Below, piece after piece: positions 1-300 of a stretch of 15,856 nucleotides of DNA (its first letter is position 1; each line of letters opens with the position of its first letter). Position numbers and translations under genes: made by a program. Source of the DNA: a virus (taxonomy: Duplodnaviria > Heunggongvirae > Uroviricota > Caudoviricetes); the IMG/VR virus record IMGVR_UViG_2529292836_000010. One strand, 5' to 3'. The notes under the pieces were generated by a model. That model was not told the DNA's origin. It saw only the letters and a list, made by a program, of their open reading frames with translations, and did no database searches.

Positions 1-194
1 AAAACTGGATGTTCGCGGGTTCCGACAGCGGTGGTGAACATGCGGCGGTGTTGTACTCGCTGATCGGCACATGCCGTCTGAACAATGTGGAGCCAGAAAA
101 GTGGCTGCGTTACGTCATTGAACATATCCAGGACTGGCCGGCAAACCGGGTACGCGATCTGTTGCCCTGGAAAGTTGATCTGAGCTCTCAGTAA
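1..194 (+). CDS. IS66-family transposase (TnpC-like), C-terminal fragment, 5' end outside window
   Basis: The frame is open from the window start (..NWMFAGSDSGGEHAAVLYSLIGTCRLNNVEPEKWLRYV..DLLPW..). It matches the conserved C-terminal block of IS66 transposases (NWLFAGS..GGE..A.YSLI.T.KLNG..P..YL..VL..I...P.NR...LLPWN). The track ORF 9-194 is only the portion downstream of an internal ATG. Confidence 0.7.
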   Translation, partial: NWMFAGSDSGGEHAAVLYSLIGTCRLNNVEPEKWLRYVIEHIQDWPANRVRDLLPWKVDLSSQ

Positions 195-224
195 ATATCA
201 ATACGGTTCTGACGAGTCGCTTAC
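1..224 (+). mobile_element. Right-hand end of an IS66-family insertion sequence (partial; the element continues upstream of the window)
   Basis: Contains the 3' end of an IS66-type transposase ORF (stop at 192-194). The sequence cgcttac at 218-224 is the reverse complement of GTAAGCG, the terminal motif I recall for IS66-family inverted repeats. Phage-like sequence resumes immediately afterwards. Confidence 0.55.
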
Positions 225-225
225 T

Positions 226-300
226 GTTAAAAAACAAAAACGGAAGAAAACAGTAACTGACGATGTTAACCCCTGGCTGACTTCCGGAGGATGGTTATGA
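226..300 (+). pseudogene. 3' remnant of the gene upstream of W, possibly terminase large subunit, apparently truncated by the IS66 insertion
   Basis: An open frame runs from the IS end to TGA at 298-300 (..VKKQKRKKTVTDDVNPWLTSGGWL*) and overlaps the W start in an ATGA arrangement (ATG 297-299). Lambda A/W overlap the same way. Identity as terminase is inferred from position only. Confidence 0.3.

Follow-up and report, generated by a model that had tools for sequence, protein, structure and literature searches.

The DNA analyzed here, referred to below as the window, is the whole stretch of 15,856 nucleotides from the virus record IMGVR_UViG_2529292836_000010 (Caudoviricetes). It begins with the right end of an insertion sequence (IS), which is followed by a short remnant of a terminase gene and then by intact genes of the phage head cluster. 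The features located in this part of the window are as follows:

1–194, + strand: 3' end of tnpC, identified by its translation, by PF13817 and NF033517, and by the RefSeq product name 'IS66-like element ISCro1 family transposase' in both identical loci
203–224, + strand: right terminal inverted repeat, the partner of the left repeat; its last base, 224, is also that of the IS
225–232, + strand: right copy of the target-site duplication, TGTTAAAA; the same octamer precedes the left IS end in strains L5_E1779 and NCCP 13717
226–300, + strand: orphaned 3' remnant of terL (gpA-type), annotated by PGAP as a 'terminase gpA endonuclease subunit' pseudogene with a missing N-terminus
297–509, + strand: intact gene in the W position, 70 aa, DUF6148/head-tail adaptor-like (WP_001072975.1)
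509–1984, + strand: intact portal protein gene, taken from the list of open reading frames (WP_001460789.1 in L5_E1779, NCCP 13717 and one further locus)

Positions 3–191 contain the last 63 codons of tnpC of an IS66-family (ISCro1-like) element, with a TAA stop codon at 192–194. The translation of this fragment runs NWMFAGSDSGGEH...LPWKVDLSSQ. It matches the Pfam domain DDE_Tnp_IS66_C (PF13817, E = 2e-17) and covers positions 346–386 of 387 (the final 41) of the NCBIfam model transpos_IS66 (NF033517). The 30 bases past the stop codon finish at position 224 with ...ACGGTTCTGACGAGTCGCTTAC, and the reverse complement of 203–224, GTAAGCGACTCGTCAGAACCGT, begins with GTAAGCG. Terminal inverted repeats of the IS66 family are 20–30 bp long and start with GTAAGCG (definition quoted in PMC11946415). 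A preliminary description of this DNA had placed the end of an IS66 transposase C-terminus and of a terminal repeat at 224, and this boundary proved to be exact to the base: in a search of E. coli genomes, the similarity to IS copies ended at 224 and uninterrupted prophages matched with 100% identity from 224/225 onward. No promoter-like site was found at the IS end in window positions 1–700, and the sole terminator-like match in the IS end within these positions (204–219) coincides with the inverted repeat and has a weak T tract behind it.

The set searched consisted of 5426 complete E. coli genomes. The exact junction (window positions 1–600, 100% identity) was found in two of them, namely NZ_LR883006.1 (L5_E1779_ETEC) and NZ_CP115984.1 (NCCP 13717), and the uninterrupted site was found in 1893; the other matches of the junction query were IS copies or uninterrupted prophages. 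The left end of the IS lies outside the window and was read from the two genomes that share the junction. Their identity to the whole window is 99.3% and 98.7%, and neither is its exact source. In both genomes, the 5'-to-3' order upstream is a DUF1441 terS gene, a 682-codon terL ORF, tnpA-tnpB-tnpC, the 75-nt terL remnant and the W-position gene. The IS is complete in both, is 2699 bp long and is oriented like the phage late operon. In NCCP 13717, the left inverted repeat GTAACCGGCTCATTTAAACCGT (beginning GTAACCGG) was located 2655 nt upstream of the right one; the 22-bp terminal repeats are imperfect and agree at 16 of the 22 positions. The octamer TGTTAAAA stands on both flanks of the IS in L5_E1779 (left copy at 9518–9525 of its locus) and in NCCP 13717, and it is present as a single copy in the uninterrupted terL of strain RM14723. 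A target duplication of 8 bp is typical of IS66 elements. Thus, the other IS end, the 8-bp duplication and the 5' part of the interrupted gene, for which an extension upstream had been proposed, are all present in the junction-sharing genomes, and the event is a simple transposition with an 8-bp duplication.

The three-gene organization tnpA-tnpB-tnpC, which the window does not contain in full, was likewise found in L5_E1779 and NCCP 13717. TnpA (NF038385) and TnpB (NF033819) scored above the NCBIfam cutoff, and the full TnpC of NCCP 13717 matched PF03050, PF13817, PF13005, PF13007 and NF033517 (479 bits at a cutoff of 180). The element therefore combines DDE transposase domains, the tnpA-tnpB-tnpC organization, terminal repeats and the 8-bp duplication of an IS66-family member, and it is called ISCro1 here after the RefSeq/PGAP product name. 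The ISCro1 copies compared have a mutual identity of 99.0–99.1% over 2699 bp. The two copies at the identical site (locus positions 9526–12,224 in L5_E1779 and 13,526–16,224 in NCCP 13717) show 23 differences over 2699 positions (99.15% identity), a divergence slightly above that of the flanking terL that could stem from gene conversion between IS copies or from the assembly of a repeat. ISCro1 was originally noted as the IS that had expanded most in Citrobacter rodentium ICC168 and is known for its expansion and its residence in mobile elements (PMC3072379). The element described here resembles it in the tnpA-tnpB-tnpC genes, in repeats starting with GTAA(G/C)CG, in the 8-bp duplication and in its frequent occurrence in prophages and islands (PMC3072379). 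There is no substantive difference between them, and the element at the window junction is one more copy, in E. coli.

The sequence downstream of the IS was then attributed to a gene. Positions 226–300 translate as VKKQKRKKTVTDDVNPWLTSGGWL*, i.e., 24 codons followed by TGA (298–300). This translation is identical to residues 676–699 of the full-length TerL (699 aa) encoded by RM14723, strain 602354 and phage cdtI, so that the 75 nt of a preceding gene reported before W are the last 24 codons and the stop codon of a gpA-type terL, as the comparison with terminase C-termini suggested in the preliminary description has now established. There is no in-frame start codon for the remnant back to a TGA at 181–183, and its translation is therefore not expected. 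The terL stop codon overlaps the start codon of the W-position gene (ATG at 297) in the sequence ATGA, and GGAGG lies 6 nt upstream of this ATG. The homologue of the W-position gene in phage mEp213 is annotated as a head-tail adaptor.

The insertion point is in codon 678 of the 699 codons of terL, 66 bases before the end of the gene. The interrupted ORF encodes 682 aa, namely native residues 1–677 followed by SNRLI and a stop codon from the IS end, and it differs from the 699-aa protein only after residue 677. The segment lost consists of the 22 C-terminal residues, KQKRKKTVTDDVNPWLTSGGWL (3% of the length), which comprise a basic patch and a conserved terminal peptide behind the Pro/Ser-rich linker PDSTEPSPSPEPVSTPVK. 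In the intact TerL of RM14723 (locus positions 3978–6077), GpA_ATPase (PF05876) occupies residues 40–303 (E = 4e-81) and GpA_nuclease (PF20454) residues 325–643 (E = 3e-86), and the scores of both domains are equal in the truncated and the intact protein. The presence of ATPase and nuclease domains, together with the terS-terL-W-portal order with the stop/start overlap, characterizes the gene as gpA-type.

The preliminary description had also supposed that the small and large terminase genes were replaced or interrupted by the IS. The interruption holds for terL; the replacement does not, because an intact terS and 677 of the 699 codons of terL were found upstream of the IS in the two junction-sharing genomes. 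Nothing upstream of the right IS end is contained in the window itself, and 7–8 places matching IS66 were counted in each of the two junction-bearing records, which makes recombination between copies possible; the terminase genes might thus have been deleted, e.g., by an IS-mediated adjacent deletion, leaving no usable terS or terL upstream in the genome from which the window derives. However, both genomes with the identical junction contain a simple insertion with a perfect duplication, and a flanking duplication is unexpected after an adjacent deletion, which makes a loss of these genes very unlikely.

The question is then whether the loss of 22 residues matters. The terminal motif NPW..SGGW(L/V) is retained in TerL from cdtI, mEp213 (78% identity; ...ANPWSSSGGWV) and Fels-1 (70% identity; ...GGVSGGGWL), and the linker preceding it diverges among these phages. 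The conservation of the end next to a divergent linker argues for a function of the tail. The intact allele is carried by phage cdtI (99.6% identity over 699 aa), which is a deposited complete phage genome, and by the enterotoxigenic E. coli (ETEC) strain 602354 in the same head module. In phage lambda, it is the C-terminal domain of gpA that binds the prohead (portal). The mutant Aam42 lacks the last five residues of gpA; as summarized in PMC4856287 from Sippy & Feiss 1992, its terminase nicks cos and forms Complex I. According to the same summary, it does not dock on the portal and gives a very low yield, and wild-type terminase supplied in trans rescues it about 2000-fold (PMC4856287).

The TerL analyzed here shares only about 24% identity with lambda gpA, with a tblastn alignment that spans residues 48–633. 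Homology of the lost tail to the gpA tail was considered and rejected, as the tail sequences are unrelated and do not align; consequently, a docking role of the lost tail stays an analogy. On the grounds of position, conservation and lambda genetics, we infer that the lost tail (candidate peptide TVTDDVNPWLTSGGWL) is a portal-docking peptide, and the portal protein is its presumed docking partner. As an observation of more general kind, the motif NPW..SGGW(L/V), preceded by a Pro/Ser-rich linker of variable sequence, forms a candidate portal-docking peptide that has no similarity to the gpA tail of lambda. Since the loss of five residues in Aam42 blocks prohead binding and the C-terminal motif is conserved, it is likely that packaging of the prophage DNA is stopped by the loss of the tail.

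The insertion could instead be functionally silent, the 22-residue tail being a dispensable, disordered appendage, so that the 682-aa TerL would package DNA and the prophage would be viable as far as the terminase is concerned. Both catalytic Pfam domains finish by residue 643, the linker that leads to the tail shows little conservation, and RefSeq treats the 682-aa ORF as a normal terminase, without a pseudogene label or a mention of the truncation, all of which would fit a silent insertion. Against this, the extreme C-terminal SGGW(L/V) is kept among TerL proteins of 70–78% identity and the linker is not, the intact end is retained in 1893 genomes, and the removal of five terminal residues from lambda gpA is described in PMC4856287 as lethal through its effect on prohead binding. 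A silent insertion is accordingly rather unlikely.

The reading that we prefer, and consider fairly probable, is that ISCro1 was inserted into codon 678 of terL with the catalytic domains kept and the docking tail lost, so that the prophage is packaging-dead unless TerL is supplied. In terms of mechanism, a complete 2699-bp ISCro1-type element transposed into this codon in a lambda-like, cdtI-related prophage residing between potB and potC in an ETEC lineage and generated the TGTTAAAA duplication. The truncated terminase would still bind and cut cos, without docking on proheads, and packaging would require a compatible TerL given in trans. The head and tail genes downstream could still be transcribed through the IS, and the W-position gene retains a ribosome-binding site of its own.

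A source of such help was sought in the two junction-bearing chromosomes. No second near-identical terL or terL tail was found in either of them at the sensitivity of megablast. The region of window positions 200–600 (terL tail, W-position gene and start of the portal gene) occurs once per chromosome, and a whole-terL query found two places in LR883006, namely the 5' part (query positions 1–2032) and, presumably, the 3' remnant. A co-resident prophage terminase could nevertheless bypass the defect, as is known for prophage Sp4 of E. coli O157:H7 Sakai, a member of the 'defective prophage pool' in which nu1, the small subunit gene, is disrupted by an IS and whose DNA is packaged, probably with the help of Sp14 (PMC2669165).

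Comparison with known systems indicated which parts of this reading have precedents. As in lambda Aam42, TerL is clipped at its extreme C-terminus with the catalytic domains intact, and the TerS-TerL-W-portal order with overlapping stop and start codons is also that of lambda; by analogy, a recessive defect would be expected here, in which cos is cut but docking on proheads fails and which can be complemented in trans. The cause differs, being an IS insertion instead of a nonsense codon, and 22 residues are lost and five foreign ones added; in addition, the tails are unrelated in sequence. Sp4 is similar in that a lambdoid prophage of a pathogenic E. coli has a terminase hit by an IS. There, however, it is the small subunit that is hit, and packaging of the DNA continues, probably through the terminase of Sp14 (PMC2669165), whereas here the tail of the large subunit is hit and a near-identical second terL was found in neither of the two genomes. 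The same terS-terL-W-portal module, with a 99.6% identical TerL, occurs in phage cdtI (AB285204.1) and in the potB/potC prophage of 602354, but their terL is intact (699 aa) and carries no IS, and they represent the pre-insertion state.

The prophage is a full-length lambdoid element located at potB/potC, with integrase, excisionase, repressor region, lysis, head and tail genes. The same potB/potC prophage was found in five other ETEC genomes of the 5426, those of strains 120899, 103605, 204446, 504237 and ETEC-2265. All five carry a different ISCro1 insertion in terL, after approximately nt 810, in the opposite orientation and with the 8-bp duplication AAAGCCAG; it was read at locus positions 1095–3793 of NZ_CP025916.1. 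In strain 602354, the terL of the potB/potC prophage is intact. Judging from these genomes, a single 2.1-kb gene is the target of two independent ISCro1 insertions. Prophage DNA is a permissive target for IS elements. Because ISCro1 copies are many, prophage DNA is permissive and this IS is known for expansion in mobile elements, insertion by chance is the default explanation of the recurrence in terL. Selection for prophages that are packaging-dead yet continue to express their genes is an improbable cause of the double hit; if it did operate, the prophage would retain its cargo and perhaps also a terminase that cuts cos without packaging and could interfere with related superinfecting phages.

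Other lesions were flagged by RefSeq in the two junction-bearing prophages. That of L5_E1779 has an internal stop codon in U (locus positions 17,266–17,667), and in that of NCCP 13717, rusA and cro are frameshifted and a tail-fibre gene lacks its N-terminus (locus positions 5212–5578 and 32,837–36,409, and positions 2041–2284 of a separate locus). These lesions are not common to both genomes and are either strain-specific decay or sequencing errors. A cluster of tRNA-Ile, tRNA-Arg and tRNA-Arg genes was also observed in NCCP 13717 (locus positions 7889–8138), upstream of the region covered by the window, between the DNA methyltransferase and the lysis genes. Many Stx-type lambdoid phages contain a comparable tRNA cluster.

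The tail-tip genes of the window were compared with those of its relatives. In positions 1–11,442, the window differs from NCCP 13717 by three substitutions and no indels; the differences are at 3002, 6963 and 8602, the only ones in the first 11.4 kb, and in each case G in the window stands against T. Within positions 11,717–14,772, the window carries 61 deletions of one base each and not one insertion, and most of the 56 substitutions also fall there; close relatives are all about 60 nt longer over this span. The genes K, I and J are broken by the deletions in the window and are annotated as intact in the annotation tables of NCCP 13717 and strain 120899 over the same span. The exclusively one-sided changes, confined to a multi-copy prophage region, point to a poor consensus instead of natural decay, and the damage is probably an assembly or consensus artefact. 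Simple homopolymer slippage was rejected as the cause of the deletions, as only 27 of the 61 adjoin an identical base; a consensus of mixed paralogues is our guess. The damaged tail-tip genes, which had been cited in support of a defective prophage, thus lose their value as corroboration, and read support should be checked before their frameshifts are taken for biological decay.

A low-quality stretch in the same window, like the multi-copy nature of the IS, could lead one to regard the junction itself as an assembly misjoin. But the junction, the left IS end and the target duplication agree in two complete genomes assembled independently in different projects, and the breakpoint lies exactly at the canonical IS end; a misjoin is extremely improbable. 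The insertion into terL is real, its anatomy is completely worked out, and its functional reading is plausible.

The junction is already annotated in two RefSeq genomes, in neither of which the truncation of the 682-aa ORF is flagged. The disruption of prophage morphogenesis and terminase genes by IS elements is well known, and the finding is an ordinary event of a known kind. The main bearing of the finding is on annotation: the prophage is best recorded as probably defective in packaging, and the reason is not the loss of the terminase genes but a subtle C-terminal truncation by 22 residues that automated annotation passes as intact. The insertion adds to the cases in which IS elements erode lambdoid prophages of pathogenic E. 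coli, and the second, independent ISCro1 hit in the terL of sister strains offers a small lead on prophage domestication.
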